Shown piece by piece: positions 11,139 to 63,871 of a stretch of DNA of 64,000 nucleotides. Origin of the DNA: Candidatus Dadabacteria bacterium (GTDB lineage: Bacteria; Desulfobacterota_D; UBA1144; Nemesobacterales; CSP1-2). Position 1 is the stretch's first letter. Each line of letters starts with the position of its first letter. The stretch is from positions 352,001 to 416,000 of the forward strand of contig CAWDVW010000002.1 of NCBI GenBank assembly GCA_963805855.1, read 5' to 3'. The position numbers and the translations under genes are program-made. The notes beneath the pieces were generated by a model. That model was not told where the DNA came from. It was given only the letters and a program-made list of their open reading frames with translations, and made no database searches.

Positions 11139-11162
11139 ATAATCCGAGGTTGAGCTTCTCTA

Positions 11163-11795: not shown

Positions 11796-11797
11796 AT

Positions 11798-12283: not shown

Positions 12284-12350
12284 TGTTTTAGCAAGATTAT
12301 ATCGGATTAACCTGTTACTTCAACAAAGTGGCTTCCGTCCATAATTTTGT

Positions 12351-12837
12351 GTAGGCACTGACTTGTCTATGCAGCCTCAGCACGAACAAGTTCGTGCCTA
12401 CAGGCATTAGAGAAATAAGACATATAAGCCGCTCTTACAAGCATTACGTCATTCCCAAGCAATAGGCGTCCTTCGGCAGGCCTGTACTGAGTGAAATCGA
12501 ATTGCTCAGGGCAGGCTTGGCGCGAGTTGGAATCGCGGCTGGAAGCCGCTCCTACGGTGGGATAGAAACATCTCTTCGATCCTTCGACATCACTCCGGCC
12601 CAGGACAAAGCCCTCCCTGCGAGCAACGCTATTTAAATAGTCTTTAACAACTCAAAGGTCGGCGCTTTATTAATTTTATCGTGGCTAGATGCCACTCCTA
12701 TGTGCGGGACTGGAAAATCCCGCCTATCTGAAGGATAGTTTAGAGAAATCTCCCTCTATCCTTCTTTTCATAATGACGGATCATTGCAGGCGCAGACTTG
12801 TGTCTGCAACCTCAGCACGAACAAGTTCGTGCCTACA
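12351..12837. repeat. Cluster of REP-like palindromes (GTAG and GATAG classes)
   Basis: 28-bp identical copies at 12375-12402 and 12810-12837. 12532-12555 is the reverse complement of the REP beside the RAYT. A GATAG-type palindrome lies at 12704-12728. Confidence 0.8.
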
Positions 12838-12852
12838 AAAATAACTTCCCTT

Positions 12853-15096
12853 TTATCTACCCTTTGCCCACCTACCGCGTTCGATAAAATCAATAGCGTA
12901 ATCTCTCGATTTACCATCTGGATCGATGAAAATAATCCGTTGGAACTTTCCTATTGCTCCATCATAGTCACCTACGGAAAAAAGGTTAATGCCGAGAAGT
13001 TTTAGATTCTCTATTTCTAGCTCTATTGAAGGCAAACCCAACCATTCGGATTGTTTGAGATATGAAGCGGCTTTTTCGAATTCCCCGTTTTTGTAAAATA
13101 TCCGCCCGAGCAAATAATACGCAGGTGAATAGTAGGGGTTATTCCTTATTAATTCCTCTAATGAACTAACGTGGATCAAATCATCTGTGGTGGAAAAAGA
13201 CTCCCGAATCCTTTCCTCTATCATCCCGCCAGCCGAGATCGCTGAGAGCTTCACATCTAATTCCCTCTCTAGACTGTCTGTAAGCGGACGCATGACCAGA
13301 TTTCTAAAGACTCGTTCCGCTTCCTCAACTTCCCCAGTTTGCCACAGAAGATTTCCTTTCAGGTTTTCGAGAATGGCTTTATCAATATCGGGAAACGAAA
13401 AGTCATTTTCGAGAAGCTTTCTCAGCTCGTCATAATCCTTGTCAAAATAGTAGGAGTAAGCGAGACTTTCGATAACTCCCGGATCATCCGGATTTAATTC
13501 AGACGCCTCGAGAAAGAGGTTCTTTGATCCATAGAAATTACCATCGTCAAAATCCTTAACCCCCATTTGTTTTAATTCCGCAATCCTTCTCGGACACCTC
13601 CCCTGAAATATACTGGGTTCCTGAAACATGTATTTAGCGAGTATATTTAACTTCGAAGGAATCGTAATTCCATCTAAGAAAGATCTCCATTCCCGTGTGA
13701 GTTCATCCAGACTCTTCCCATAAATCGAAAAGTCTCCGGTCTTATAAAGAGCTTTGAACCTTTCAATTCCGTAATTATCAATCAGAAAACGCGAAAAAGA
13801 ACCCATAAGTGTATAACTTTTTCTTGGAGGTGCGTACCAGAATCCAAAACCGACTATGGAGTTTATGTCGGGAGCATCGCCCAATTCGATCATTGCTTTT
13901 GACCATTGATGCGGTGTGTAGCTATCCCTGCTCCAATCCGAAGCTACTGCAAGCCCTTCAATCAGCCCAATCTTAGGGCTAACATGAAGGATTTTCATCC
14001 CGAATCCTGAAGCCATAACATGCGCAAGCTCATGTTTTAAGACCGGATCGGGAAATGTATCGTAAACAAGATGGATTTCATTCTTGACAGGATTTGCCAC
14101 GGTGGTCTCACCGGCGCCAATCAATTTTTTCCTCGTCTCTGTATCGGGATAGATATAGGATCGGATCTTCTCGCCCGGATTGATCTTTAACAGATCTTTT
14201 AATCGCCTGAACCTCCATTCATGATCTTCTGCGATGAGGCGAATATTTTGCGCCACTTCAGTACCCGGAGAATAATGAATCACAAAATGCTCTGTTTCAA
14301 AGGATGACTTCAGGTAATTTTGAGTTATATATTCTCTCGTATAGCTTATTCCGATTTCATTTTCATTTAAGTAAACTACAACTAAGACACCAACGATTGA
14401 TAAAAAAATCACGATATCCCAAAAACCCAATACTCCATGTTTAAAGCCATTAAGCAGCCTGGCGGAAAGCCTGGCGGAAATCAGGAATAGAATTCCCCAG
14501 CACAAGGTTAAAATTCGATAGACGATGAACGTTGTTGTGATGGGAATGACTTCATCGTATAGCGGACCCGGGAAGTACCCTATAACAATATTATAGAAAA
14601 AGAAGGAGGGGTCATTATAAACTTGCCATATGGAAAAACAGATCGTGGAAATAAGGATAAGCGCAGCTACCAAGAATCCCCATCTTCGGAAAAGGGTTCC
14701 GCATAGAATACCGAGCCCGGTCGAGAAAAACACCGTAACAAGAGGAATCAAAAGATAAAAATATAGTCCTTCTCTTACAAAGCAATCCTGTTTCAGCATG
14801 GAACTTGCAAGGCCTATTAAAAGGGGACAGACTGCGATCAGATAATTAGTTATGAAAATTGTAGATGCTAGATCACCGAATCCTTTTTCCGTTCCGAATT
14901 TTGTACGAAATTCGACGCCTGCAAATTTTGAGGAGATAAAAACTGATACAAAAGCTAAAATAAACGAAATCGCTAAAGAGTACTCATAGCCCAGTGTGCC
15001 AATTAAAGGTAGGAAGGTTATTGCTATTGATATCAGTATCACTAAAACAATTGATATAATGACTTTAGTCGAAAAGAATATCTCTCTAAAAAACAT
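12853..15096 (-). CDS. Membrane-anchored zinc metallopeptidase (HExxH, MA/gluzincin-like) with C-terminal TPR repeats
   Basis: About 7 N-terminal TM segments, HELAH followed by GLIEGLA, and TPR-like helices at the C-terminus. Confidence 0.7.
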   Translation of the reverse strand: MFFREIFFSTKVIISIVLVILISIAITFLPLIGTLGYEYSLAISFILAFVSVFISSKFAGVEFRTKFGTEKGFGDLASTIFITNYLIAVCPLLIGLASSMLKQDCFVREGLYFYLLIPLVTVFFSTGLGILCGTLFRRWGFLVAALILISTICFSIWQVYNDPSFFFYNIVIGYFPGPLYDEVIPITTTFIVYRILTLCWGILFLISARLSARLLNGFKHGVLGFWDIVIFLSIVGVLVVVYLNENEIGISYTREYITQNYLKSSFETEHFVIHYSPGTEVAQNIRLIAEDHEWRFRRLKDLLKINPGEKIRSYIYPDTETRKKLIGAGETTVANPVKNEIHLVYDTFPDPVLKHELAHVMASGFGMKILHVSPKIGLIEGLAVASDWSRDSYTPHQWSKAMIELGDAPDINSIVGFGFWYAPPRKSYTLMGSFSRFLIDNYGIERFKALYKTGDFSIYGKSLDELTREWRSFLDGITIPSKLNILAKYMFQEPSIFQGRCPRRIAELKQMGVKDFDDGNFYGSKNLFLEASELNPDDPGVIESLAYSYYFDKDYDELRKLLENDFSFPDIDKAILENLKGNLLWQTGEVEEAERVFRNLVMRPLTDSLERELDVKLSAISAGGMIEERIRESFSTTDDLIHVSSLEELIRNNPYYSPAYYLLGRIFYKNGEFEKAASYLKQSEWLGLPSIELEIENLKLLGINLFSVGDYDGAIGKFQRIIFIDPDGKSRDYAIDFIERGRWAKGR

Positions 15097-15355
15097 GGAT
15101 TAGTGCTCCGCGTTTATATCAAATAAGAACCATCAATATTGGATTCGTTGAAAAAATACATCATTTCTCTCAAATAATGAATAGCCCCGAGCGAATCTCT
15201 AGATTATTAGCGCATGAACCAACAGTCTCTTCGGTAATTGCTGTAAATGTCTCGTAATTCGACGACAGAATCCAAAAAATAATAAATCTTCTCGAAACTT
15301 ACTCATCCGTCATCCTCGAATGTTTTAATCGGGGATCCATGGTTTAGTCTTTTAT

Positions 15356-15598
15356 TTTCTTTGTCTTGATACAAAGAAACAAAAATCAATGGCTGACAAA
15401 AAACGCTTGCGTATCGAGCGAATGCGAGATATCTATTGCTATAATTAATTAGTTCTCTCAGTCACTTTGTTCCTTCGAGATGACAGTAATGATTGTCACT
15501 TTTTTTTACGCTTCCGGAATTGATTTTGGCAATTTTTTGAATGCCCATTTAAAATCTAAGAAATTGTCCCCGAATTATCTAACATCTACAGCAATGAC
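15356..15598. repeat. About 243-bp dispersed repeat, copy 2
   Basis: Near-identical to 4816-5058. Confidence 0.92.
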
Positions 15599-15614
15599 AG
15601 TGGATACCGTGTAG

Positions 15615-16052
15615 CTACAGGAAATTGGTATAGGACTATTCTATTCAACTATTACGACCGCGGCTGTTACTTCTCTGGATCCATCCCGTGCAAGTCTCGC
15701 CGGAGGTATTATCTATATGTTCCAGATTGCAGATGCAGCCTTGGGCCTTGGAATTACTACGAATATTTTCATTTCATCTTCTAGGGGTTTTCTTGCTCGT
15801 GAAATCAAAAGACTTGGGGTCTCAATAACGGATACACAGAAGAGTGTTATAAAAGGAATTCTGGCCGGCATTGAAATTATTAAAGATGCTAAAGAGTTTT
15901 TTAACCCGGAACTCTTCAACCGTATTATTTCAATCATACACTAAGCCTTTATGCACGGGCTCGAGGATGGATTTGCTTTTGCCGGCGCGTCAGCCCTAGT
16001 ATCATTCGTGATTGCGCTGTTATTCGTTGGGCGACGTTATAGCTCAAGCTAA
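15615..16052 (+). pseudogene. MFS (DHA2/EmrB-like) transporter remnant, 3' part only
   Basis: One frame reads IGIGLFYSTITTAAVTSLDPSRASLAGGIIYMFQIA..., hits an internal TAA (15942-15944), then reads AFMHGLEDGFAFAGASALVSFVIALLFVG. No 5' part is present. Confidence 0.72.
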
Positions 16053-16070
16053 AATTAGATTTATCTGCCT

Positions 16071-16649
16071 GTGTTAGCTTTTAATGGTAATATAGAAAAC
16101 CAAAATATGAAGGAGGAACACATAATGGACATTTCCTCAAAAATCAAAATTGCTGGAGTCAAACCTCTTAATTTGCCCACCCCCGAACATGCGCTACCAC
16201 TTCTTACTGCTGAGATCGAGGATGGCGATGACCGCCTATGGATGAAATTAACAGATACGGTTTATAGCCGTCCATTGGCTATCTTCACATCGACGGGAGG
16301 GTGGATTGAGTTTTTTAAATCGACAACCTCAGGCTTCATGAATCGCCATCGTCATGACACACCGGTAATGGTATACGGCATCTCCGGGTCGTGGGGCTAT
16401 TTAGAACATGAATGGATTGCTAGCCCCGGTTCATTCCTCTATGAACCCGTTGGTGAAAGTCATACCTTTGTTGTATATAGTAATGAAGGCATGAAAGGGC
16501 TGGCACATATGTTTGGTCCGATTACGTTCATAGATGAGAACGGAAAAGACTTGGCAAACGTCGGAGCACTAGATGTTCTTGATAAATACAAAAACCATTG
16601 TGCGGAAGTTGGATTGGGAGCCGAATATGCTGAATCTTTGATCCGGTAA
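16071..16649 (+). CDS. Cupin, 2,4'-dihydroxyacetophenone dioxygenase-like
   Basis: NRHRH...GSWGYLEHEW...YEPVGESHT cupin motifs. The start may be further downstream. Confidence 0.8.
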   Translation: MLAFNGNIENQNMKEEHIMDISSKIKIAGVKPLNLPTPEHALPLLTAEIEDGDDRLWMKLTDTVYSRPLAIFTSTGGWIEFFKSTTSGFMNRHRHDTPVMVYGISGSWGYLEHEWIASPGSFLYEPVGESHTFVVYSNEGMKGLAHMFGPITFIDENGKDLANVGALDVLDKYKNHCAEVGLGAEYAESLIR

Positions 16650-25366: not shown

Positions 25367-26053
25367 ATGACATCAATATTGAGAAGTGAAGGAAAAGACT
25401 TCGAAATACCACCTATAGACCTAAAAGCGCCAAGCAAAAAAGAGACTGCGACATTGGCGCTGGGATGTTTCTGGGGCCCTGATGCGCAGTTTGGTGTCAC
25501 TCCTGGGGTGATAAGAACACGAGTCGGATATGCCGGAGGACAGCAACCCGATCCGACATATTATAATCTCGGTGATCATATTGAGACTGTGCAGATTGAA
25601 TTCGATCCGAAGGTCACCTCGTATCAGGAATTATTAGATATATTTTGGCATAGTCATAATCCACATAAGCCAGGGTGGCTGAGGCAATACATGTCGGCAA
25701 TCTTCTATCACAATAATGCTCAAGAAAATTTAGCGCGGGAAACATTAGACAGAGAGTTTAAACGGACAAATAGAGAGATATTTACAGAGATCATGCCCTA
25801 TACGAAGTTTTACATGGCAGAAGGTTATCATCAGAAATATAATCTCAGGCAGTACCGCGATTTAGTGAAAGAATATATTAAGATTTATCCTGATGAAAAT
25901 GATTTTATAAATTCAACGTCAGCAGCCCGTGTGAATGGCTATGTAACCGGTTACGGCAATTTAAGAGTTCTAGAGGAAGAGATTGAAAGCCTTGGCCTAT
26001 CGGATAAAGGAAATGGAGTGCTGAAAGAAATTGTCTTAAGAGTTTCCAAGTAG
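25367..26053 (+). CDS. msrA: Peptide-methionine (S)-S-oxide reductase
   Basis: GCFWG active site, RVGYAGG and AEGYHQKY. Confidence 0.93.
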   Translation: MTSILRSEGKDFEIPPIDLKAPSKKETATLALGCFWGPDAQFGVTPGVIRTRVGYAGGQQPDPTYYNLGDHIETVQIEFDPKVTSYQELLDIFWHSHNPHKPGWLRQYMSAIFYHNNAQENLARETLDREFKRTNREIFTEIMPYTKFYMAEGYHQKYNLRQYRDLVKEYIKIYPDENDFINSTSAARVNGYVTGYGNLRVLEEEIESLGLSDKGNGVLKEIVLRVSK

Positions 26054-26268
26054 GACTGATATTCAGCTCATTAAAATAAGTATAGTTGGTCTACTCACAC
26101 TTAGATGTAATAGTTATGATTGTTAAAAGTTTGGAAGATCACATAGGCTCCAGGAAAACACAAATCGCGTGTGATTAGCGTACCCCCATTCCATGAAAAT
26201 GACGAACATCTTTCTAATCGGATCTGGATCAACCCGAACTCTTACCCTACTTTAAGTGGAGGACTCGT

Positions 26269-26547
26269 ATGATTGATATTGATAAGGCTTTACATAATCC
26301 CGCAACTGTCTTCGAAACACCGGATGAGGTGCTTAAAGCTGAGGAATTATCTCGAGAACAAAAGATCGAGATACTGAGACGGTGGGAATTTGATGCAAGA
26401 GAGCTTCAGGTAGCTGAAGAAGAAAATATGATTGGTACCAATGCTGATATCTTAGGCCAAATCATGAGGGCACTACTCCAACTTGACGAAAAATCAGAAG
26501 TAGAGCGCCTAGAGCGTTCGACCTCGTCAAAACAAGGTGGCGAGTGA
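26269..26547 (+). CDS. Conserved hypothetical protein
   Basis: GGAGGA RBS. The LSREQKIEILRRWEFDARELQVAEEENM pattern is familiar from small proteins of unknown function. Confidence 0.7.
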   Translation: MIDIDKALHNPATVFETPDEVLKAEELSREQKIEILRRWEFDARELQVAEEENMIGTNADILGQIMRALLQLDEKSEVERLERSTSSKQGGE

Positions 26548-26601
26548 TCAGTGCTGGTATGACGTTTGTTACTCCCTGTCACTTAATGGCTTTTTCTATG
26601 T

Positions 26602-27996
26602 TTGAAACTATATGAGAATGCACGGAGTCAACCAGTGAAGGTAAATACTCTAATTGTTGTTTTTCTACTTTTCTTAGCGGCATGTAGAAGAGATGATCCT
26701 GAAATGATGGATAAGATGGTAAGACACACACTTACCTCCGCCAAAGTTAATATTTTGAAAACACCTGAACCCCGGGATCCTAAACTTGTTGAATTAGGCA
26801 AAAATCTTATGTTCGACAGAATATTGAGCGGTAGGAAGGATATCTCGTGTGCAACCTGTCATCATCCGTCGTTATATACAGGCGATGGGATTTCGCTATC
26901 TATAGGAGTCGGAGGAAAAGGCTTAGGTACAGCCCGCGTGCCGGGTCAAGGCCGGATTTTTAGTACCCGAAATGCCCCAGATTTATTTAACAAAGGCATG
27001 TCTGAGTTTAAAGTAATTAATTGGGATGGTAGCATATCTTTAGCGAAAGAGAAGTTAGAAACCCCCGCAGGAAAAGATCTTCCACCCGGCCTTGATGGTC
27101 CGTTAGCCGCCCAGCATCTATTTGAATTGGCCTCTCGCCGAACAATGCGTGGACAATCCGATGACTCAGTTGCCATCGACAAGACACACAATGAACTGGC
27201 ATCCATTCCCGATGACGATTTCAAGGCAATATGGAAAGCTTATATGACTAGATTAATCGGAGATCCTCCTGGTAAGGGCGGAATCCCCGAATATATAGAA
27301 CTATTTAAAGCTGCTTATCCAAAAGTCGATCTCGCCGAAATTGGGATTCAACACGCTGTCAACGCAATAGCTGCTTGGGAAATAGATACATGGACCTTTA
27401 CAAATTCTCCATTGGATCGCTATTTGTCAGGAGACAACGACGCCCTGACTATAGCACAGAAGCGTGGCGCCCTAATCTTCTATGGAAAAGCACGGTGTTA
27501 CGAATGCCACTCGGGAAACCTATTGACCGACATGAAATATCATAACATTGGAGCACCACAGATTGGTCCCGGAGTTGCGGAAGTAGCTCCACTCGATCTA
27601 GGTCGTGGAAGCATAACCAAGAAACCTGACGACAAATTTAAATTCCGCACCCCACCCCTAAGAAATGTTGCACTAACAGGTCCATGGATGCACTCGGGTG
27701 CATATACAAATCTCGAGGCTGCCGTTCGCCATCATTTAAATCCTAAAGAATCGCTAAGAAATTATGATTCCAGCCAGCTTGATCAACAGTATCAGGATAT
27801 GGTTCATAATAAGGAAATAATCGAGACTGGCGTATTAAACACGGTTGATGGAGTAGTGGCTAATCCAATAAATCTGAGTGACCAAGAATTTTCCGACCTT
27901 ATGGAGTTCCTTCAGTCCCTTACAGACCCGAAAGCGCTTGATCGGTACAATGAAATACCCAAAAAAGTACCCAGTCGCCTCCCGCTATATGACTAG
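26602..27996 (+). CDS. Di-heme cytochrome c peroxidase / MauG family lipoprotein
   Basis: CATCH and CYECH heme motifs, FRTPPLRNVALTGPWMHSG, and an LAAC lipobox. The start may be slightly downstream. Confidence 0.9.
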   Translation: MKLYENARSQPVKVNTLIVVFLLFLAACRRDDPEMMDKMVRHTLTSAKVNILKTPEPRDPKLVELGKNLMFDRILSGRKDISCATCHHPSLYTGDGISLSIGVGGKGLGTARVPGQGRIFSTRNAPDLFNKGMSEFKVINWDGSISLAKEKLETPAGKDLPPGLDGPLAAQHLFELASRRTMRGQSDDSVAIDKTHNELASIPDDDFKAIWKAYMTRLIGDPPGKGGIPEYIELFKAAYPKVDLAEIGIQHAVNAIAAWEIDTWTFTNSPLDRYLSGDNDALTIAQKRGALIFYGKARCYECHSGNLLTDMKYHNIGAPQIGPGVAEVAPLDLGRGSITKKPDDKFKFRTPPLRNVALTGPWMHSGAYTNLEAAVRHHLNPKESLRNYDSSQLDQQYQDMVHNKEIIETGVLNTVDGVVANPINLSDQEFSDLMEFLQSLTDPKALDRYNEIPKKVPSRLPLYD

Positions 27997-48890: not shown

Positions 48891-49949
48891 ATGAGGTTTT
48901 GGATGAACCTGAAAAAACTCGCCCAACAAGTGTCAAATAAATCAAAGATCAAGGTTACCTTAAATGATATAGAAAGGTTGCTGGGTACGCTAAGAAAGAG
49001 CAAGAATCCCTGGGATGTTATAGACAAGTCTGATTTTCCGGTTCCCGCAGTATTCGAATCCATTAAGGCACTGGAAAAAATCAGACTTGTTTCAGTATCG
49101 GGAAATGGATTTTACCTCACGGATGAAGGAAAAAATGTCGCAAAACGTTTACATCCGGTGGACGATCTCTCATGTAAAACTTGCGAAGGAAGGGGAATCA
49201 TTCTGGAAAAATTCTCGGAAATCAAAAATAAATTCCTCAAGATTCAGAAGAGACGTCCGGCTCCATTGAGAAAGTTTGACCAAGGATACGTAACCCCTTC
49301 CACTACTCTCTCACGTTTTGCCCTTGCCTATGAAAGGGGCGACATACATGGAAAGGAAATATTCGTCCTTGGAGACGATGATCTGATAAGTATAGTTCTT
49401 GGAATCAGCCGTCTACCGAAGAGAATAACAGTAGTGGAAATTGACAACAGACTAACAGATTTCATTCAGGAAATCGGTGTAATAGAAGGGTTCAAAGTGG
49501 ACGTTCACACTTTCGATCTACGACGTTCTATTCCCCGCGATCATAGGAATAAATATGATACCTTTTTCACCGATCCTCCTGAGACATTGAAGGCGGCGGA
49601 CGCTTTTATTGGCAGGGGAATTGCGACACTTAGTCAACCTGGTTCCGCTGGATACTTTGGTTTTACAAGGAGGGAAGCGTCTCTCACGAAGTGGTATGAG
49701 CTCCAGAAAATGCTACTTAAATACAAGATCGTATTCACTGATATAATTCATAATTTTAACGAATATATAAACTGGGGTTACGAAGAGGAAACAAGGGCTT
49801 GGAGACTGTCTCCCTCAAAAGTCAAGCCCAATAAGAACTGGTACAGATCGGCGCTATATAGACTTGAAACTCTTGAGGGCTTCAGGGGTAATCACAAGGA
49901 ATACATCAAAGAAAATATATATGAGGACCATGAGAGCTCGACAACCTGA
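48891..49949 (+). CDS. bpsA: Branched-chain polyamine synthase-like protein (N4-bis(aminopropyl)spermidine synthase, BpsA/DUF43)
   Basis: FDQGYVTP, LGDDDL, EIDNRL, FDLR, FFTDPPET, FNEYINWGY and terminal ESSTT. Confidence 0.8.
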   Translation: MRFWMNLKKLAQQVSNKSKIKVTLNDIERLLGTLRKSKNPWDVIDKSDFPVPAVFESIKALEKIRLVSVSGNGFYLTDEGKNVAKRLHPVDDLSCKTCEGRGIILEKFSEIKNKFLKIQKRRPAPLRKFDQGYVTPSTTLSRFALAYERGDIHGKEIFVLGDDDLISIVLGISRLPKRITVVEIDNRLTDFIQEIGVIEGFKVDVHTFDLRRSIPRDHRNKYDTFFTDPPETLKAADAFIGRGIATLSQPGSAGYFGFTRREASLTKWYELQKMLLKYKIVFTDIIHNFNEYINWGYEEETRAWRLSPSKVKPNKNWYRSALYRLETLEGFRGNHKEYIKENIYEDHESSTT

Positions 49950-55950: not shown

Positions 55951-55979
55951 TTGACTTTATTTCCTAAAGTTAATAAAAT
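55951..55979 (+). promoter_or_regulatory. Sigma70-type promoter with an overlapping inverted repeat (candidate operator)
   Basis: TTGACT-N17-TAAAAT, with a TTGACTTTA-N5-TAAAGTTAA dyad. Confidence 0.6.
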
Positions 55980-56012: not shown

Positions 56013-56462
56013 ATGTCGAAATATATCATTAAAATCGCTGAAACTGATGATGAACTAAAAGAATATTTTCGTGTTCGCAACGAGGTTTTTGTAAAGGAGC
56101 AAGGGATATTTACCGAGACAGATGTTGACGAACATGATCCGAGCGCAACTCACATAATCGCAGTCGAAGCCTCAAGCAGTAATGTAGTAGGCGTTGTCAG
56201 ATGCTACAGTAAGGATGGAAACACATGGTTTGGCGGCAGACTGGGAGCCTTACCAGATTACCGCAATGGCAGGGTTGGGTCTCGTCTTGTGCGATTTGCT
56301 GTGAGTACTGCTAAATCAAAGGGCTGCAAAAAATTCCTGGCATACATACAGCCCAACAATGTGAGATTCTTCCAGAGACTTGATTGGGAAAAAATAGGAG
56401 AGCCAATTATCTATGAAGGCATGCCACACCAATTGATGGAAGCGAATTTGGATTCGTACTAA
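56013..56462 (+). CDS. GNAT acetyltransferase, MSMEG_0567/Sll0786-like (Nit1C-associated)
   Basis: R..VFV.EQGIF...D.DEHD, WFGGRL, LVRFAVSTA...GC..FLA.IQ..NV.FF..L.W and PHQLMEA.L. Confidence 0.85.
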   Translation: MSKYIIKIAETDDELKEYFRVRNEVFVKEQGIFTETDVDEHDPSATHIIAVEASSSNVVGVVRCYSKDGNTWFGGRLGALPDYRNGRVGSRLVRFAVSTAKSKGCKKFLAYIQPNNVRFFQRLDWEKIGEPIIYEGMPHQLMEANLDSY

Positions 56463-56465
56463 TAT

Positions 56466-56562
56466 CACGATGCACGATGCAGGATTCAGGATGCAACTAT
56501 GAAAAAAAAGAACTTACATCGTGCATCATGCATCATGGATCATGTATGGTGAATCGTGCATC
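56466..56562. repeat. Palindromic 7-bp-periodic element, GATnCAn type
   Basis: GATGCAC GATGCAG GATTCAG GATGCAA, an A-rich spacer, then TGCATC units. Confidence 0.85.
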
Positions 56563-56610
56563 CGCAATTGTTGACGATACCGTGTTATTAAAAAAGAATG
56601 GGAATCCACT

Positions 56611-57600
56611 ATGGATGAGCTAATAACTGCTTTACGCAGCTCCACACGTTTAGCCGAAAAGGTAAATTTAAGGAACCTCTGGGACATCATACCGGGTGTC
56701 TGCGAAGTTGACGGTAGAAATGTGATTCTTGGTGACGATGCGGCTGCTATAGAGACAAACGATGGTTATCTATTGGCGGCGGCTGAAGGCGTTTACCCCG
56801 AACTTCTGAAATCAAATCCCTACCTTGCAGGGCGCACCTCAGTCCTCACAAATGTGAGCGATATTTACGCTATGGGTGGAAGACCAATAGCGATCCTGGA
56901 TGTACTATTTTCACCCAATTTAGAAGAAGTCAATGATATAGTGCGAGGTATAAAGGATAATGCGTACCGATATCATGTACCACTTGTAGGAGGTCATTTA
57001 AATCGCCGAACAAATTTCTCTTCCCTCTCAGTCTTTATCATAGGTAGGGCTACAAGCCTACTCTCCAGTTTTAATGCCCAAGAAGGCGATGACTTGGTTT
57101 TCGTTTGCAGCCTAGATGGAAAATTCTATTCGGGATTTAATTTCTGGGATTCCTCCAGCGAATTGAGTAGTGAAGACGCTCTCAGACAATTGGAATTGTT
57201 TCCGCGACTTGCGGAAGAAGGAAAGGTTGATACCGCGAAGGACGTTAGCATGGCAGGTTTAATTGGATCAGTACTGATGCTTTTGGAGTGTTCCGGAAAA
57301 GGTGCGGAGATACAAATAGAGAGGATTCCGAAGCCTGATGAGATCCCATTGAGGGATTGGTTGATTACCTTCCCGAGTTACGGATTTATTCTATCGATAA
57401 GACCGCAATACACCGCAGACGTTAAGAAGATATTCGATTCCATTAATCTCACGTGCGAAGTGATCGGTAAGATTATCGGCGGCAGTAATGTCTCATTTGT
57501 AAAAAATGGCGCTGAGAAAAGACTATTCTGGGACACCGAAGTCCAGCCCTTAATTGGTATTGGAAAAGATAGATTTAATAAGGTGAAAAATGGGAAATGA
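56611..57600 (+). CDS. AIR synthase/PurM-superfamily protein, Sll0787-like
   Basis: GDDAAAI, NVSDIYAMGGRP, VPLVGGH, AKDVSMAG and WLITFPSYGF. Confidence 0.87.
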   Translation: MDELITALRSSTRLAEKVNLRNLWDIIPGVCEVDGRNVILGDDAAAIETNDGYLLAAAEGVYPELLKSNPYLAGRTSVLTNVSDIYAMGGRPIAILDVLFSPNLEEVNDIVRGIKDNAYRYHVPLVGGHLNRRTNFSSLSVFIIGRATSLLSSFNAQEGDDLVFVCSLDGKFYSGFNFWDSSSELSSEDALRQLELFPRLAEEGKVDTAKDVSMAGLIGSVLMLLECSGKGAEIQIERIPKPDEIPLRDWLITFPSYGFILSIRPQYTADVKKIFDSINLTCEVIGKIIGGSNVSFVKNGAEKRLFWDTEVQPLIGIGKDRFNKVKNGK

Positions 57601-58177
57601 ACAGAATCAGATAGAGGACATAGTTTCCAAACTAGGTGAAAAAATCAAACGAATCCGATTGGATAGGGGCCTGTCCCTTAAAGACTTGTCGGTAAAATCG
57701 GGGATCTCCGCAGCAGCCATCCACAAGATAGAGTCTAATGGAATAATCCCGACTATAACGACCATGATGAAGATCTCCGACGCCCTGGGAAAAGAAGTAA
57801 GCTATTTCATCGAAGAAAAACGGGGGAAAAAAGATGTCTTTTACGTACCTGCTCGAAAACGTGAAAGCATTTTCACATTTAAGAAGGGATTAAAGCTTCG
57901 TGGCATTTCCGCAAAGAAATACGGAGATTTCATGATGACGGCCGCCTATGCGGTGGTTGATGTAGGGGCCTCAAGCGGTAGAAAACCAATGAAACATAGA
58001 GGAGAAGAGCTCGTATATTGCCTTAAAGGAAAAATGGAACTGCGAATAGGTAATGAAACATATACCCTTGGACCCGGCGACAGCATTCACTTCAGGACTG
58101 ACATCAATCATAGCTGGAAAAATACCGCCGACACTCAAGCAGAGTTAATTTGGGTGCTAGCCGTCGAGCCTTCATGA
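57590..58177 (+). CDS. XRE-family HTH plus cupin transcriptional regulator
   Basis: LGEKIKRIR...SLKDLS...IE...PTI HTH, and HRGEE...LGPGDSIHF...H cupin. Overlaps the upstream gene by 11 bp. Confidence 0.92.
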   Translation: MGNEQNQIEDIVSKLGEKIKRIRLDRGLSLKDLSVKSGISAAAIHKIESNGIIPTITTMMKISDALGKEVSYFIEEKRGKKDVFYVPARKRESIFTFKKGLKLRGISAKKYGDFMMTAAYAVVDVGASSGRKPMKHRGEELVYCLKGKMELRIGNETYTLGPGDSIHFRTDINHSWKNTADTQAELIWVLAVEPS

Positions 58178-58178
58178 G

Positions 58179-58286
58179 GCAAGATACATGATGCAAGATG
58201 CAGGATACAGGATACAAGACAGTAGAAGAAAATATAAGTTAATCGTTAATCGTGAATCGTGAATCATGGATCGTGGATCATGCATC
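58179..58286. repeat. Palindromic 7-bp-periodic element, GATnCAn type
   Basis: GATACAT GATGCAA GATGCAG GATACAG GATACAA, a spacer, then TGAATCG/TGGATCA units. Confidence 0.85.
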
Positions 58287-58299
58287 TCTTATTAAGAAC

Positions 58300-59602
58300 A
58301 TGGTTGCTAAAATAAAAAGTCAGAAAAAAACAGAAACTAGGACATTAACGTATCTAGGTCAGCGAATTAATGAAGCCAACACACTTGCGGTAGACAGGAT
58401 CTTATCGGTTGAACCGGTTCTTCATTGATGTTGATACCGCAGTTAATGTAATACCGGGCATGACTCCCGATACTGTACTACATGCAGGTCCTCCGATTGA
58501 ATGGGAAAGAATGTGCGATCCGATGAAGAGGGCAGTTAGAGGAGCTTTAGTGCTCGAGGGCCTTGCGGAAAATGACGAGGCCGCGGACCAACTACTAAAA
58601 AGAAAAAAGGTAAAGCTCTCGCCAAATCATCACCATGACGCAGTGGGGCCTATGACCGGAATTATCTCGTCTTCAATGCCTGTTATTGTTACAAAAGACT
58701 CAACCTTCGGCAATAAAGTCTATTCCACGTTTAATGAGGGCGCAGGCAAAGTCCTATGGTTTGGGTCATTCGGAAAAGAGACCCTTGAGCGTCTCAAGTG
58801 GATTCGGGACATTTTTGGTCCCGTAATGAAGAAGGTTATCAAAAAAGCACAAGGCATCCCAATATGGAGCATCCTGGCCCAGGGAATTCAGATGGGAGAT
58901 GAGTGCCATAATCGTCACGCGGCATCATCAAATCTTTTTCTTAAAAGAATCCTAGAACCACTCGTTTCAATCGATCTTTCAAAAAAAGTCTTGTTGCAGG
59001 TCTATAACTTTATTGCCGGAAATAGCCATTTCTTTCTGAACATGACCATGACTGCATGTAAACTCTCGATGGACGCGGCAAGGGATATAAGAGAATCAAC
59101 CGTTGTCACAGCAATGTCTAGAAACGGGACTGATTTTGGTATTCGAATAAGTGGACTTGGGAATGAATGGTTCACGGCACCTGCTCCTTATCTCAAGGAT
59201 GCCCTTTATAACCCTGGATATAACTTCAATGACGGAGCCCCAGATATAGGCGATAGCTCAATCATAGAAACAATGGGACTTGGAGGGTTCGCCATCGCAG
59301 CCGCACCTGCAATGGCATCGTTTACCGGAGGAGGCTTTCAAGAGTCCATAAGAATTACAAAGGAGATGGGTCTAATAACTCTCGTAAAGAATCAGAAGTT
59401 CGGGATCCCGGTTTTGGATTTCGAGGGAACTCCCACAGGCATTGATTTACGAAAGGTCGTCGAAATTGGCATTAGTCCAAGTATAAACAGCGCCGTAGTA
59501 CATAAAAGCTCAGGCGCCGGTCAGATAGGCGCGGGAATCGTAAAGGCCCCATATGAATGTTTTTCGAAGGCGCTAAAGGCTTTTGGAAGGAAATACAGAT
59601 GA
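58300..59602 (+). CDS. DUF1116 / YlbE (AllG)-like protein with an apparent +1 frameshift near 58420-58424
   Basis: ATG 58300 gives INEANTLAVDRILSVEPVL and then TGA (58426-58428). The +1 frame continues IDVDTAVNVIPGM...LHAGPP...MGDECHNR...NSHFFLN...RNG...PDIGDS...GQIGAG. Confidence 0.85.
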
Positions 59603-59684
59603 TGCACGATACAGGATGCAAGATGCAGGATAATAAAAGAAAGTATGGGTTCATCGTGAATCATGCGTCATGAATCTTGAATCA
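59598..59684. repeat. Palindromic 7-bp-periodic element, GATnCAn type
   Basis: GATGCAC GATACAG GATGCAA GATGCAG, a spacer, then TGAATC units. Confidence 0.85.
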
Positions 59685-59697
59685 TTAAGAGAAAACC

Positions 59698-61257
59698 ATG
59701 GCTATAGTCAGCACGGTTAAGAAAAACTTCTATCAGGATTCGATGAAGCTTATGCAGATTAGCCAAAAGCTAAGCAATCTTAGCGGAATCAAAAAGGCGG
59801 CAGCAATCATGGCAACTAAAGCTAATCTAGCTATGCTGAAGGAGACGGGATTACTTAAGAAAGAAACTGATTCAGCCAGTCCTAACGATCTTATAGTAGC
59901 AATTGAAGCAGAATCTGAAAAAGAAGCAAATGAAGCTCTAAAGATGTTGGACACCCTTCTTGCCCCTCATCAAGCCGGCATTACCGCAAAATTTGAATAT
60001 AAGGATCTTGATTCAGCCCAAAATGATTTGCCTCAGTCGAATATTGCAGTCATTTCCGTTCCCGGAGAATATGCAAAGTTGGAGGTCGCGAAGGCTGTTG
60101 ACAGGGATCTCCATGTCTTTCTGTTTAGCGATAACGTATCAATCGGTGAAGAGATTGAGCTCAAGCTTAGGGCAAAAGAGAAGGGCTTACTAATGATGGG
60201 TCCTGGTTGTGGAACCGCGATCATCAATGGAGTAGGACTTGGATTTGCAAATGTCGTCAATCGGGGTCCAATAGGGGTTATCGCAGCCGCCGGGACTGGA
60301 ATGCAAGAAGTTACTAGCCTGATAAACAATTGGGGATCAGGAATTTCGCACGCAATCGGAGTCGGCGGTAGAGACCTGTCTGACAAGGTGGGGGGAATAA
60401 TGACGATAGAGGCAATAAGGATGCTTCAGGGCGATGAAGGAACAAAAGCCCTTCTTCTGGTTTCCAAGCCCCCTTCAGATAAGGTAGCAAGAAGGGTCAT
60501 AGATTTTATTCGCAAAGGTGGCCTACCAGCTGTTATATGCTTTCTCGGAATGAAAAACATTAAGGCTAAAGATTCAAAAACGCAGTTTGCCACAAATTTG
60601 GACCAATCCGCGCTTGACGCAATTAAACTGGTGGGAGCAGGGAATACCGCTCCCAAGGTTCTTTCTCACAACAAGTGGAAAAAAGCCGCTCAGAAGTGTC
60701 AAAGCCTTTTAAATACCGATCAGATTTATCTTCGCGGTTTATTCTCTGGTGGAACCCTTTGCTATGAAGCCCAGCAAATCCTGACGCCAATGCTCGGCAA
60801 AATATATTCCAATGCCCCACTCGATAAGCAAAACAAATTAAGACATTCAAACGTTAGCAAGCAGCACACATGTATTGATCTGGGCGAGGAAGAGTTTACG
60901 AAGGGACGCCCTCATCCGATGATTGATGCGACACAGCGAAATGAACGGTTACTACAAGAGGCATCCAAGCCCGATGTTGCCGTGATCCTATTCGACGTGG
61001 TACTTGGATATGGTGCAAGCTCTGACCCTGCCGGTGATCTGATTCCGGCTATAGATGAATCAAACAGATTAGCGAAAAAGAAAGGCCGTTCTATCGCATT
61101 TGTAGCACATGTTTGTGGTACAGAGCAAGACCCTCAGGATCTAAAATCGCAGGTCAAGAAGCTGGAAAAAGCCGGAGTCATTGTTCTTCCCACAAACGCT
61201 TTAGCGTCCAGAGTAGCAGGGTTAATAGCAAAAGGCATGAAGACTAAAATATCCTAA
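59698..61257 (+). CDS. fdrA: FdrA (AllF)-family protein, succinyl-CoA-synthetase-alpha-like fold
   Basis: YQDSMKLM, ISVPGEYA, FSDNV, MGPGCGT, GVGGRDL, GLFSGGTL and GRPHPMID (His of the phospho-His loop). Confidence 0.92.
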   Translation: MAIVSTVKKNFYQDSMKLMQISQKLSNLSGIKKAAAIMATKANLAMLKETGLLKKETDSASPNDLIVAIEAESEKEANEALKMLDTLLAPHQAGITAKFEYKDLDSAQNDLPQSNIAVISVPGEYAKLEVAKAVDRDLHVFLFSDNVSIGEEIELKLRAKEKGLLMMGPGCGTAIINGVGLGFANVVNRGPIGVIAAAGTGMQEVTSLINNWGSGISHAIGVGGRDLSDKVGGIMTIEAIRMLQGDEGTKALLLVSKPPSDKVARRVIDFIRKGGLPAVICFLGMKNIKAKDSKTQFATNLDQSALDAIKLVGAGNTAPKVLSHNKWKKAAQKCQSLLNTDQIYLRGLFSGGTLCYEAQQILTPMLGKIYSNAPLDKQNKLRHSNVSKQHTCIDLGEEEFTKGRPHPMIDATQRNERLLQEASKPDVAVILFDVVLGYGASSDPAGDLIPAIDESNRLAKKKGRSIAFVAHVCGTEQDPQDLKSQVKKLEKAGVIVLPTNALASRVAGLIAKGMKTKIS

Positions 61258-61274
61258 TAAGCGGAGGAAATGTA

Positions 61275-62213
61275 ATGAAGGTAGCTGTAGTAGCATTTGG
61301 CGGAAACGCCCTCATGGGGCACGAGGGTAAAAGCAATTATGCAGACCAGATTAGGAGAACAGATACAATATGTAGAAAACTACTCGGCCTGTTTCAATTG
61401 GGATATAGGATTATAATCACCCACGGTAATGGTCCGCAGGTAGGAAATATCCTGATGCAGCAGGAATGTCTAATAGATTCTCTACCGCCAATGCCACTTG
61501 ACGTATGCAACGCAATGACACAGGGACAGATTGGATATATGATAGAACAGAGGTTACGAAACATATTGGAGGAAAAAAAGATCAAGAGGTCCGTTATAGT
61601 TTTAGCTACACAGGTAGTAGTGTCAGAAAATGATCCCGCATTTAAAAATCCAACAAAGTTCATCGGGCCTTTTTTCAGACAAGAGGAAACCGAAAGACTC
61701 GAAAAGGAGAAAGGTTGGGATATGAAAGAGGATTCAGGTCGGGGTTACAGACGTGTAGTTCCATCTCCAAGACCAATAGATATAGTAGAAAAGGACGAAA
61801 TCTCAGACATGGCAAACAGAGATTTAGTCGTAGTAGCATGTGGGGGTGGAGGAATTCCAGTGCTTAGAGACAAAAAAGGGAAACTAAAGGGCGTTGCCGC
61901 CGTCATTGATAAAGATTATGCAGCTGAAAGACTCGCGAGTCTCATAGGCGCGGATTCGCTGATTTTAATAACGCCCGTCGACAAGGTATCAATATTCTAC
62001 GGAACATCAAAACAGAAAGACCTTGGAAGAATATCACTCGAAGAATTGAAAGGTTACTACGATGAAGGGCATTTCCCGGCAGGGAGCATGGGGCCTAAGA
62101 TCGAGGCCACTATGAAGTTTATCAGCGAAGGCGGAAAAAGGACGATTATTACCTCGATAAAAGGTCTCGATGATGCGATAAAAGGCAAAGATGGTACAGT
62201 AATAACGCAATGA
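61275..62213 (+). CDS. arcC: Carbamate kinase
   Basis: AFGGNAL, THGNGPQVG, PTKFIG, YRRVVPSP, GGGGIPV, VIDKD and GSMGPK. Confidence 0.96.
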   Translation: MKVAVVAFGGNALMGHEGKSNYADQIRRTDTICRKLLGLFQLGYRIIITHGNGPQVGNILMQQECLIDSLPPMPLDVCNAMTQGQIGYMIEQRLRNILEEKKIKRSVIVLATQVVVSENDPAFKNPTKFIGPFFRQEETERLEKEKGWDMKEDSGRGYRRVVPSPRPIDIVEKDEISDMANRDLVVVACGGGGIPVLRDKKGKLKGVAAVIDKDYAAERLASLIGADSLILITPVDKVSIFYGTSKQKDLGRISLEELKGYYDEGHFPAGSMGPKIEATMKFISEGGKRTIITSIKGLDDAIKGKDGTVITQ

Positions 62214-62403
62214 AACAATGTCAAAAACCAGGAGCAGTTTGTAGAGGATTAATCTATAGAAATAATCTAAAATCGTTATTTGAAATGAATTTGGTAATCG
62301 ACTAAAGAGCTTCAGGGAATTTGCGAGTTTTCGGAATCTACGAGATGATTTGCTTTATGGGACATCTAATTACCGAGATTCTTATTCATTAAAAATTTAC
62401 TTG

Positions 62404-62432
62404 TTGCTTTTGTTGAACTTTTGTAATATGAT
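62404..62432 (+). promoter_or_regulatory. Possible sigma70-type promoter
   Basis: TTGCTT-N17-TATGAT upstream of the amidohydrolase gene. Confidence 0.45.
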
Positions 62433-62506
62433 GGGATAATAAGGGGTATGAGTGAACCGATTAAGCATCAGAATTAACTACACAACAACATTAGGAGGTG
62501 ATCTAA

Positions 62507-63352
62507 GTGAAAGTAAACAGAAAGGTTTTTGATGCCCATTCACATATAGGCGAGCTAGCAGCATATAAATTCTATGATTTGGCAGAACCTGTTAAACCCA
62601 CCGTAATCGAGTATCCAACTTATAAAGAATATCTAAAACATATGGACGAGTATGGAGTTGATCGAGCGATGGTGATTTCTAATTATGGAGTGCCGGACTC
62701 AGGTCAACCATTTACATTGAATCCAATTGTGATTGATGGTGTCCATCAGGCAGACCGCCTTGTTGGAGCTATTTGGGTTTCTGGTCTTGCAAAAGACAAA
62801 GAACGGACGGCTGAGGCATTAAAACACGTTAAAGAAAAAGGTATAGTTGCTCTAAAATCTACATGCCTTCTTGGGGGCACATACAATCCTGGAGAATGGG
62901 ATGATGAAGCGCGAGCATTATGGGAAAGCATCATTAACGCCGCCGAGCAAAATCACCTTGTATTACATATTCATACAAGCCCTGGCGGAGGTTCAGACAT
63001 CTCAAACGCACTCGAGCTAGTTAAACAGTATGGGAAAAGAATCAAAATACATCTGGTACACATGGGTGGATTTGTCAGCGGACATATAAAGCTGGTGCCA
63101 AAATTTATTAATTTGGTGAAAGAAGGTTTTATGGTTTATACGGATACAACTTGGGCAGTTGGCTTTGGGTCACGCTGGTTACTCAATGAGATTGAGAAAA
63201 CCGGAGTTGGTTCTGATAACGTCCTTTTTGCATCCGACACTCCGTGGAGTGACTTTCCTTCGGAGTTCTGGAAGATTGAAGGCGCAAGTATTTCTGAGGA
63301 ATTGAAAAATAAGATCTTTTGGGAAAATGCCCAGAAACTTTATTCTAGATAA
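62507..63352 (+). CDS. Metal-dependent amidohydrolase (amidohydro_2-like TIM barrel)
   Basis: DAHSH, HIHT, LVHMGG and FASDTPW, with an AGGAGG RBS and GTG start. Confidence 0.88.
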   Translation: MKVNRKVFDAHSHIGELAAYKFYDLAEPVKPTVIEYPTYKEYLKHMDEYGVDRAMVISNYGVPDSGQPFTLNPIVIDGVHQADRLVGAIWVSGLAKDKERTAEALKHVKEKGIVALKSTCLLGGTYNPGEWDDEARALWESIINAAEQNHLVLHIHTSPGGGSDISNALELVKQYGKRIKIHLVHMGGFVSGHIKLVPKFINLVKEGFMVYTDTTWAVGFGSRWLLNEIEKTGVGSDNVLFASDTPWSDFPSEFWKIEGASISEELKNKIFWENAQKLYSR

Positions 63353-63379
63353 AAAATATCATATAAGGAGGTAGTAAAA

Positions 63380-63871
63380 ATGGCAGTCGACAGAGTAAAA
63401 GGAGAGAAACCAACTAAAGGAAAGGCGTTGGTAGATTATGAGGAGAAAGTATTTCCAGATCATAAAGCAAAGGAAGGGGAAAAGGCGTTATTCCTTATCC
63501 ACTCGGTGCCCTATGAAGGATCTGTGGCTGGTATTAACATGCTTACAGCTATAAGGGCTAAAAAGAAGGGTTATGATGTTAGTGTACTGTTTTACGGCCC
63601 CGCTTCCGGCATACCAGTATATCGGGGCTGGCCCAACGTTGGGGACGACGGCTATGGTGCTGGGATACAGTTATACCCAAACCTTGTCGCAAGATTGATT
63701 AATGAAGGAATAACGGTCTATGCATGTCGCTTCTCAGCTGCTTCGCTTTGCGGTCTCAGAGAAGATGACTTTCTGGAGGGTGTAAGGCCGATACATCCGA
63801 CCGACATTTTGGACATAGTAATCGAACACCATAGAGCCGGTGCAATGATGTTCAGCACTTGGACTGTTTGA
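63380..63871 (+). CDS. MSMEG_0572/Sll0783-like (DsrE-fold) nitrogen-starvation protein
   Basis: LVDYEEKVF...GEKAL...EGS...YGP...RG.P..GD...VYACRF...WTV pattern. Confidence 0.85.
   Translation: MAVDRVKGEKPTKGKALVDYEEKVFPDHKAKEGEKALFLIHSVPYEGSVAGINMLTAIRAKKKGYDVSVLFYGPASGIPVYRGWPNVGDDGYGAGIQLYPNLVARLINEGITVYACRFSAASLCGLREDDFLEGVRPIHPTDILDIVIEHHRAGAMMFSTWTV

Follow-up and report, generated by a model that had tools for sequence, protein, structure and literature searches.

Near the end of a 64,000-nt stretch of DNA from Candidatus Dadabacteria (assembly GCA_963805855.1, contig CAWDVW010000002.1, positions 352,001 to 416,000; hereafter the window), genes of the Nit1C cluster are interleaved with genes for a carbamoyltransferase and a carbamate kinase. 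This raised the question of whether the two gene sets form one system and, if so, what that system does. In Synechocystis and Mycobacterium smegmatis, nitrogen starvation induces few gene sets as strongly as Nit1C, and in Pseudomonas cyanide assimilation depends on it. To our knowledge, its function has been open since 2005, with substrate and product unknown. An earlier annotation made from the letters of the window (the sequence-only reading) had taken the locus for a local hybrid of the two sets. Instead, it proved to belong to a widespread and stable cluster type, which we designated type C and which has its own clade of the carbamoyltransferase subunit AllG. Type C is a distinct, multi-phylum, nitrilase-less form of Nit1C and of its M. 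smegmatis relative gpr. It carries a dedicated AllFGH-type paralogue and carbamate kinase, a metal enzyme of family PF04909, and a flavoprotein resembling CoA-disulfide reductase (CoADR) with a predicted small partner. Of the Nit1C/gpr core it keeps the DsrE-like protein, the radical SAM enzyme, the GNAT, the AIRS-like enzyme and the glycosyltransferase (GT4).

The window part of the cluster consists of eight plus-strand open reading frames (ORFs), located exactly where the sequence-only reading had placed them (Table 1). Pfam and NCBIfam searches, with most scores over the curated cut-offs, agreed with all eight family assignments. Profile scores are quoted in bits against the curated cut-off. 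The GNAT, AIRS-like and DsrE-like proteins were true members of the Nit1C/MSMEG families TIGR04045, TIGR04049 and TIGR04044, all over cut-off. The DsrE-like protein had been called divergent; it is a full family member and not especially divergent.

The cluster had been expected to continue past position 64,000, and it did so for about 5.2 kb. The window holds the first two thirds of a run of 13 co-oriented genes, in the order GNAT, AIRS-like, XRE-cupin, AllG, AllF/FdrA, carbamate kinase, PF04909, MSMEG_0572, radical SAM, flavoprotein, orf96, AllH and GT4. The radical SAM gene starts 6 bases after the window end. The reported lack of a YlbF-like gene was literally true for the window, but AllH (the YlbF/DUF2877 family) lies about 2.9 kb beyond it in the same co-oriented run. 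Thus a full three-subunit AllFGH-type enzyme is encoded. Of the other genes that the sequence-only reading had proposed to look for downstream, the radical SAM was present. The nitrilase, MSMEG_0569 and MSMEG_0570 were absent, and a CoADR-like flavoprotein and an unrelated 96-aa protein (orf96) were found instead.

The linkage was conserved among relatives. TIGR04044 was found in 22 of 41 genomes of the order (G000 and 40 relatives) and AllG in 23, and the same 22 held both. In 18 of these 22, a single contig carried the AllG and MSMEG_0572 genes on one strand, 3.6–5.1 kb from each other; in the other four they were on separate small contigs. This linkage is far beyond chance. Across the phylum, TIGR04044 was present in 51 of 120 genomes.

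When species genomes were searched with an MSMEG_0572 alignment, at least 575 relatives came up; the analysis below uses the best 80 loci. Their gene content was determined by BLASTP and iterated hidden Markov model searches. These loci comprised 37 of Dadabacteria type, 41 from Actinomycetota, one from Anaerolineales and one from Acidobacteria. Gene order was identical in the 37 wherever the contig allowed; the other 43 had the same gene set in shuffled order. At least one of FdrA, AllG, AllH and ArcC was present in 72 of the 80. Among the loci of at least 15 kb, all 25 of Dadabacteria type had FdrA, AllG, ArcC, radical SAM, AIRS, flavoprotein and orf96. All 27 from other phyla had the flavoprotein–orf96–MSMEG_0572 set, 23 had FdrA and 19 had ArcC. 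The XRE-cupin regulator was present in 23/25 and 22/27 of these loci, respectively, and OsmC was linked in 17/25 and 16/27.

Carriers therefore included Candidatus Dadabacteria, Actinomycetota, Chloroflexota and Acidobacteriota, so that the genome survey suggested earlier for Nit1C with fdrA, DUF1116 and arcC found them linked in four phyla. Cultured, non-pathogenic carriers were Pseudonocardia parietis DSM 45256, P. hydrocarbonoxydans NBRC 14498, Actinomycetospora cinnamomea DSM 45771 and A. callitridis DSM 101857. That two operons came to lie together by chance was rejected on the strength of the conserved linkage across genomes and of the separate cluster-linked AllG clade described below.

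Two loci showed unusual arrangements. In a metagenome-assembled genome (MAG) labelled Deltaproteobacteria, two MSMEG_0572-family genes, each 69% identical to that of the window, flank the PF04909 gene (L046, 9340-11269). In one Dadabacteria-type locus (L019), GNAT and AIRS apparently form one fused ORF between the Amidohydro_2 and XRE-cupin genes, as in mycobacterial MSMEG_0567; a frame or start-codon artefact is possible.

The carbamoyl genes and the nitrilases were mutually exclusive. In an even sample of 301 Actinomycetota genomes, 11 had TIGR04044. Nine of these had AllG, seven within 7.1 kb. The remaining two (G184 and G345) were of the gpr type and had no AllG; they contained MSMEG_0572, a CN-hydrolase, MSMEG_0569, radical SAM and a fused GNAT-AIRS, with a second CN-hydrolase in G184. 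None of the 11 had both AllG and the gpr-type genes. Among 301 Chloroflexota genomes, three had TIGR04044, all with AllG within 6.8 kb. No Nit6803 nitrilase was over cut-off in the 41 genomes of the order or in the other sets (0/5, 0/10 and 0/2), with these 11 Actinomycetota and three Chloroflexota genomes among those tested. The gpr-type CN-hydrolase and MSMEG_0569 had no counterpart in any of the best 80 loci. The control genome, Synechococcus elongatus, was positive for TIGR04044 and nitrilase and negative for AllG.

Because the gene contents were mutually exclusive across the sampled genomes, three cluster types were distinguished. Type A is the classic Nit1C with nitrilase, type B is gpr with CN-hydrolases, and type C is the present form. 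A 100/100 branch in the MSMEG_0572 tree split type C from type B (32 versus 2 rows).

As defined by Podar et al. (2005, PMC1199592), Nit1C comprises seven genes without an assigned function. Type C shares with it (Pseudomonas nitBCDEFGH; Synechocystis sll0783-0787) the 160–163-aa DsrE/YchN-like protein, the radical SAM enzyme, the GNAT and the AIRS-like protein, each in the same curated family over cut-off. A protein of about 100 aa and a flavoprotein of the pyridine-nucleotide-disulfide type are also common to both, and the glycosyltransferase occurs in the beta-proteobacterial form of Nit1C. Unlike Nit1C, type C has no Nit6803 nitrilase, its flavoprotein is CoADR-like and not MSMEG_0569/COG2072, and its small protein is not TIGR04042. 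It adds the AllF/G/H-like genes, the carbamate kinase, the PF04909 hydrolase, the XRE-cupin regulator and often OsmC.

With gpr of M. smegmatis (MSMEG_0565-0572), as described in PMC6039565, it shares the GT4, the MSMEG_0568 radical SAM, the MSMEG_0567-type GNAT and AIRS functions and MSMEG_0572. The gpr-type loci (L090 of G184 and L091 of G345) have CN-hydrolases, MSMEG_0569 and the fused GNAT-AIRS and lack AllG, whereas type C has separate GNAT and AIRS genes and the carbamoyl module, and no CN-hydrolase. The literature search, supplements aside, found no paper that links the Nit1C-side and carbamoyl-side gene sets.

The carbamoyl module is related to the E. coli system, as the sequence-only reading had assumed. 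FdrA is 40% identical to E. coli K-12 FdrA/AllF over 506 aa, AllG is 44% identical to YlbE over 391 aa, and ArcC is 39% identical to YbcF/AllK. AllH is 29% identical to YlbF/AllH over its C-terminal 127 aa (E 8e-10), and it has about 190 extra N-terminal residues. In E. coli, AllF-AllG-AllH is the oxamate carbamoyltransferase and allK encodes its carbamate kinase, according to PMC11326118; homologues of all three subunits and the kinase are present here. Unlike in E. coli, there is no allantoin context, AllH stands apart, with five genes between it and the AllG/AllF block, and AllG falls in a separate clade.

That clade emerged when a maximum-likelihood tree was built from 36 AllG rows, of which 29 were cluster-linked, six were unlinked paralogues (from G044, G153, G260 and G338) and one was E. 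coli YlbE. The tree had only seven outgroup rows, and 18 of 27 Dadabacteria rows had been dropped by thinning. All 29 cluster-linked sequences formed one clade (support 99/98) that contained neither YlbE nor the six paralogues. Five of the six paralogues came from three genomes that also carry the cluster. The separate clade makes a different carbamoyl substrate likely.

The unlinked AllG loci are L093-L098, with one or two extra copies per genome. L093 is a plain ArcC-AllG-FdrA set, and a very long branch of their own holds L097 and L098.

In the metal enzyme, H11, H13, K117, H154, H156, H185 and D244 were invariant among 27 sequences. Its structural model had a predicted local distance difference test score (pLDDT) of 93.7. 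The nearest solved folds by Foldseek were gamma-resorcylate decarboxylase, ACMSD, IDCase, a LigI-like lactonase, the LigJ hydratase and the diiron AibH/SfbO, at 14–19% identity; for the resorcylate decarboxylase, ACMSD and the LigI-like lactonase, template modelling scores were about 0.6–0.7. The best sequence match in the PDB was again gamma-resorcylate decarboxylase, at only E 1e-3. With only generic PF04909 folds and this match, naming a specific reaction was dropped. The earlier proposal that the amidohydrolase opens an N-carbamoyl ring was not supported by these decarboxylase, lactonase and hydratase folds. Hydrolysis would nevertheless be compatible with its invariant H-x-H, K, H, H, D set.

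The MSMEG_0572 protein has an invariant Cys116 (14 sequences), and its model (pLDDT 77.6) had a DsrE/YchN/TusD-like fold with a match to 3mc3 (E 8e-7). In the flavoprotein, Cys47 is invariant (20 sequences) and lies in an SPCG motif, which aligns with the RCG of 6pfz in the redox-Cys region of NADH oxidases and CoA-disulfide reductases. These enzymes are also the nearest relatives of the flavoprotein, with a CoA-persulfide reductase among the matches. By its sequence, it has the features of the single-Cys CoADR/Nox/Npx group: FAD and NAD(P)H domains and an N-terminal redox cysteine. As for the remaining core enzymes, the radical SAM protein is BioB/LipA/PylB-like. The GT4 belongs to a BshA/MshA-like group and scored far under the cut-offs of both families (93 vs 274 and 77 vs 462).

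The small protein orf96 has no conserved Cys and no family match, and its gene always comes after that of the flavoprotein. Prediction of its complex with the flavoprotein scored 0.89 in three runs, compared with 0.00 for the best of three controls. Of 80 solved complexes, 58 attained the mark used, as did 2 of 110 mismatched pairs; these counts hold only roughly here because our own alignments were used. At least 94% of the contacts agreed between runs, and the partner pLDDT was at least 79. The predicted interface covered flavoprotein residues 177-210, 255-292 and 318-351. This prediction supports binding of orf96 to the flavoprotein.

Genes expected of the related systems were searched for in the genome, which is 93.8% complete. 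No Nit6803-type nitrilase was over cut-off; the best scores were 225 and 207 against 502.6, on another contig. Family searches of the window and downstream proteins found no CN-hydrolase among the cluster genes. The MSMEG_0569 flavoprotein (TIGR04046) was absent from the genome, with a best match of 22.9 bits elsewhere. The fused GNAT-AIRS family (TIGR04050) gave 149.4 against 312.2, and the two functions are separate genes here. For orf96, TIGR04042 (MSMEG_0570) gave no match at E up to 10; this family also had none in G000, G041, G044 and G045, and a chance-level one elsewhere in G184 (E 0.655). With no such signal, and with only unnamed clusters in the protein atlas, orf96 as a divergent MSMEG_0570 was rejected, and the analogy is one of position only. 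AllG is a single-copy gene in the genome. The genome gave no match to the Ldh_2/AllD family and no allantoinase over cut-off (best 247 against 357.85), which makes allantoin-derived oxalurate unlikely as substrate.

Upstream of the GNAT gene, a promoter-like site was found 34 nt 5' of the start codon. It was the best sigma-70-like match in the region (10/12). The region as a whole had fewer such sites than its shuffles, so that the site counts as a consensus match only. Among 25 Dadabacteria upstream regions, 14–15 contain its -35 element and the ATTTCCTA / AAAGTTGA words beside it. We take this as a putative conserved promoter block only, and claim nothing beyond it. An inverted repeat, ACTTTA-N5-TAAAGT, covers the -35 element and spacer. 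It occurs once in the window and is exact elsewhere only in a same-genus locus (L010); more widely, only its right half is conserved. Its role as operator for the XRE-cupin regulator was rejected, since the pattern was derived from this sequence and is exact in one further locus only. The regulator itself is weakly PuuR-like (top NCBIfam match PuuR, 64.8 bits, under its cut-off of 211), and its gene overlaps the AIRS gene by 11 nt.

Between the radical SAM and flavoprotein genes there is a perfect hairpin with a 12-bp stem and a short T run, with no second copy in the window. The contigs of runs X1 and X2 break at this hairpin. Rfam searches of the intergenic gaps at E up to 1 for riboswitches or other RNAs gave only a chance miRNA match outside the cluster. 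In the contigs of one salt-marsh metatranscriptome, eight near-identical pieces (0–2 differing letters) were listed, lying on greA, the PF04909 hydrolase, the MSMEG_0572–radical SAM spacer with the radical SAM start, the radical SAM gene and the flavoprotein gene. None bridges two genes, and the stretches without a piece carry no information. This gave a weak hint of cluster expression; DNA carry-over is possible.

Table 1. Features of the cluster and its surroundings. Positions are those of the window or, past its end, window-equivalent; L002 is a stretch that includes the downstream DNA (window position = L002 position + 52999).
Feature	Window position	L002 position	Strand	Evidence (score vs cut-off)
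Promoter-like site TTGACT-17-TAAAAT	55951-55979	2952-2980	+	
Inverted repeat	55954-55970			
MSMEG_0567/Sll0786-family GNAT N-acyltransferase, 149 aa	56013-56462		+	TIGR04045 161.4 vs 68.45; PF00583; FeeM-like PF21926 29.6 bits
Sll0787-family AIR-synthase-like (PurM superfamily) ATP-dependent enzyme, 329 aa	56611-57600		+	TIGR04049 335.8 vs 321.3; AIRS and AIRS_C domains
XRE-type HTH and cupin regulator, 195 aa	57590-58177		+	HTH_3 (PF01381), Cupin_2 (PF07883)
AllG/YlbE (DUF1116)-like subunit of oxamate-type carbamoyltransferase, 397 aa	58409-59602		+	PF06545 279.5 vs 27
FdrA/AllF-like subunit, 519 aa	59698-61257		+	NF004760 501.8 vs 433
Carbamate kinase (ArcC), 312 aa	61275-62213		+	TIGR00746 383.5 vs 358.25
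Amidohydrolase-superfamily metal enzyme (Amidohydro_2), 281 aa	62507-63352		+	PF04909 59.5 vs 26.4
MSMEG_0572/Sll0783-family DsrE-like protein, 163 aa	63380-63871		+	TIGR04044 174.2 vs 109.85
MSMEG_0568 radical SAM	64006-65136	11007-12137	+	TIGR04043 336.1 vs 303.7
Hairpin	65186-65213	12187-12214		
CoADR-like flavoprotein, 458 aa	65271-66647	12272-13648	+	Pyr_redox_2, Pyr_redox, Pyr_redox_dim domains
orf96, 96 aa	66634-66924	13635-13925	+	Overlaps flavoprotein gene end
AllH/YlbF (DUF2877)	66930-67910	13931-14911	+	PF11392 73.9 vs 25
MSMEG_0565 glycosyltransferase (GT4)	67894-69078	14895-16079	+	TIGR04047 387.6 vs 259.85
FdrA-N-terminal-like protein, 163 aa		17766-18257	+	NF004760 74 bits
RHS-repeat protein, 534 aa	3138-4742		-	PF15520 (Ntox10) 104.9 bits
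MsrA and di-haem cytochrome c peroxidase	25367-27996			
Probable truncated integrase remnant, 134 aa	32834-33238		+	Positions 33-168 of phage-integrase family
BpsA-type protein	48891-49949		+	PF01861 316.9 bits

After the GT4 gene there is one minus-strand ORF, followed by OsmC, a 163-aa FdrA-N-terminal-like protein, a MiaE-like protein and a Methyltransf_20 protein. The 163-aa protein stands alone and resembles only the N-terminal 90 or so residues of FdrA. As a set of four, they were found 3' of the cluster in 15–17 of the 25 long Dadabacteria loci (MiaE-like in 16 and Methyltransf_20 in 15), whereas no such set was seen in the 27 long loci of other phyla.

Upstream of the cluster are carB, greA and the Na+/alanine symporter gene agcS. 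They were rejected as cluster members and taken as local context only: among the 37 Dadabacteria-type loci, agcS adjoins the cluster only in L010, and greA never does. Directly 5' of carB is a gene for a protein with the C-terminal domain of BpsA-type branched-chain polyamine synthases. Elsewhere in the window, an RHS-repeat protein with a C-terminal Ntox10 toxin domain has the look of a polymorphic-toxin-type effector, and a probable truncated integrase lies near a sulfatase gene. The oxidative-stress genes for an MsrA with a 'selenoprotein MsrA helical domain' and, after it, a di-haem cytochrome c peroxidase have no positional relation to the cluster.

What, then, would type C do? Our best reading, held tentatively and at somewhat less than an even chance, is that nitrogen release, the role of the CN-hydrolases in the other types, falls here to a phosphorolytic module. 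The family roles and the exclusive distribution with CN-hydrolases would point to a route from an N-carbamoyl compound through carbamoyl phosphate to ATP, NH3 and CO2. In such a scheme, the shared Nit1C core would make or process a nitrogen-bearing intermediate. Types A and B would free its nitrogen as NH3 by hydrolysis, with the nitrilase or a CN-hydrolase. Type C would cleave a carbamoyl (ureido-type) group by phosphorolysis, and the carbamate kinase would turn the resulting carbamoyl phosphate into ATP, NH3 and CO2. The substrate would probably be other than allantoin-derived oxalurate. The flavoprotein may form a redox side together with orf96, the DsrE-like protein and OsmC, which is often linked; this would match the NADPH and peroxide phenotypes of characterised relatives. 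For these, PMC3901256 describes an sll0783 mutant with no rise in NADPH/NADP on nitrogen starvation, and PMC6039565 describes a more than 500-fold induction of gpr by GlnR under nitrogen starvation and a need for gpr in peroxide resistance. The observation made in the sequence-only reading was confirmed. Its interpretation was partly supported: the family memberships, the homology to the E. coli carbamoyl proteins, the linkage and the lack of a nitrilase held, while the release of ATP, NH3 and CO2 from an N-carbamoyl compound is still a proposal.

Several points weigh against this reading. We infer the replacement of the nitrilase by AllFGH and ArcC from distribution alone. The exchange is not a clean one-for-one substitution, since it also changes the flavoprotein and adds the hydrolase, OsmC and the regulator. 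Eight of the 80 loci had none of the four carbamoyl genes; six of these are shorter than 11 kb, and L063 (20.5 kb) and L088 (13.2 kb) are real exceptions. AllG and AllH were each found in only 15 of the 27 long loci from other phyla, partly owing to limited flank. The type-B CN-hydrolase matched N-carbamoylputrescine amidase weakly (106.9 against 410). The Nit1C nitrilase characterised in PMC7815647 preferred cinnamonitrile and fumaronitrile, with modest efficiency, and used cyanide poorly; such enzymes act on nitriles, not ureides, so that an N-carbamoyl intermediate shared by every type is hypothetical. The strong hairpin, together with gaps of 231 and 293 bp, leaves room for two or more transcripts. 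Finally, the GT4, GNAT, radical SAM and AIRS-like enzymes and the downstream diiron-hydroxylase-like and methyltransferase genes look biosynthetic, not catabolic.

The last point leads to a biosynthetic alternative, which we consider possible and rather unlikely. The product of the cluster would be a modified small molecule, such as a redox-active metabolite that is glycosylated, acylated and carbamoylated; the carbamate kinase or CarAB would supply carbamoyl phosphate, and the AllFGH-like enzyme would carbamoylate an intermediate. Tailoring or biosynthesis is typical of such enzymes as a BshA/MshA-like GT4, a FeeM-like GNAT, a BioB/LipA/PylB-like radical SAM and a PurM-superfamily ATP enzyme, and the MiaE-like and Methyltransf_20 proteins downstream in the long Dadabacteria loci fit with them. 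E. coli AllFGH is reversible and was assayed in the synthetic direction, as given in PMC11326118. The gpr and sll0783 phenotypes, as reported, concern redox and not nitrogen source (PMC6039565, PMC3901256). On the other hand, the dedicated carbamate kinase gene adjoins FdrA, which mirrors the catabolic allFGHK operon of PMC11326118. The relatives are induced by nitrogen starvation, when a nitrogen-rich product would be costly, and the exclusive distribution with NH3-releasing CN-hydrolases would remain unexplained. Improbable in our judgement is an arrangement of two independent modules, an ATP-yielding catabolic one of the ureide/oxalurate type and a Nit1C-type redox one, brought together only for co-regulation under nitrogen limitation and sharing no intermediate. 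This was suggested by the allFGHK genes found beside triuret genes of an unrelated triuret/biuret nitrogen-scavenging pathway in Nitrospira MAGs, as described in PMC12625717. The unlinked FdrA-AllG-ArcC sets in genomes that also carry the cluster fit with it, as do the internal gaps and the hairpin, which permit separate transcripts. Yet the genes are interleaved, not juxtaposed, and were kept together through reshuffling in four phyla. AllH sits five genes from AllG and FdrA amid Nit1C-type genes, and the cluster-linked AllG clade lies apart from the unlinked paralogues. The carbamoyl module was found in nitrilase-less clusters and not in the three CN-hydrolase clusters examined (G184, G345 and Synechococcus elongatus), and the genome has neither AllD nor allantoinase.

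Still less probable is a thiol or persulfide redox defence, in which the DsrE-like Cys protein, the flavoprotein with orf96, and OsmC would detoxify peroxides, reactive sulfur or cyanide, and the other enzymes would make or recycle a low-molecular-weight thiol. The invariant Cys116 in a DsrE fold, a single-Cys flavoprotein nearest to CoA-disulfide and CoA-persulfide reductases, the OsmC linkage in long loci, and the peroxide resistance given by gpr (PMC6039565) are consistent with it. The GT4 and GNAT recall mycothiol and bacillithiol enzymes, but the BshA and MshA scores are far under the cut-offs and no cysteine ligase or thiol-specific enzyme was identified. It also leaves the carbamoyltransferase, the carbamate kinase and the type-A nitrilase unexplained. 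A further idea came from the HypF/HypE cyanide-ligand pathway, in which carbamoyl phosphate chemistry is combined with a PurM-superfamily ATP enzyme and a cysteine-bearing carrier. By analogy, the cysteine of the DsrE-like protein might carry a one-carbon nitrogen unit as S-cyano (thiocyanate) or S-carbamoyl, interconverted by the AIRS-like enzyme at the expense of ATP, as by HypE. Discharge would be by the nitrilase in type A, by amidase-like CN-hydrolases in type B and by AllFGH-like phosphorolysis with ATP gain in type C, and the flavoprotein with orf96 would reset the thiol. If true, nitrilase discharge in type A would explain the link to cyanide assimilation, and the thiol reset could explain the NADPH phenotypes. 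We regard this as very improbable. The likeness is no more than a lead on how the system may work. No HypF/HypE family member is present here; TIGR04049 is the family of the AIRS-like protein, and AllFGH is the type of the carbamoyltransferase.

Under the phosphorolytic reading that we favour, the consistent exchange of a nitrilase for a carbamoyl-phosphate-forming enzyme and a carbamate kinase narrows the chemistry of the terminal step of Nit1C. It points to a group that leaves either as NH3, by hydrolysis, or as carbamoyl phosphate. Since the variant occurs in cultured actinomycetes, it is open to genetics and to enzyme assays. The AllFGH transcarbamylase class, which was defined recently, would also be widened by it beyond oxalurate.

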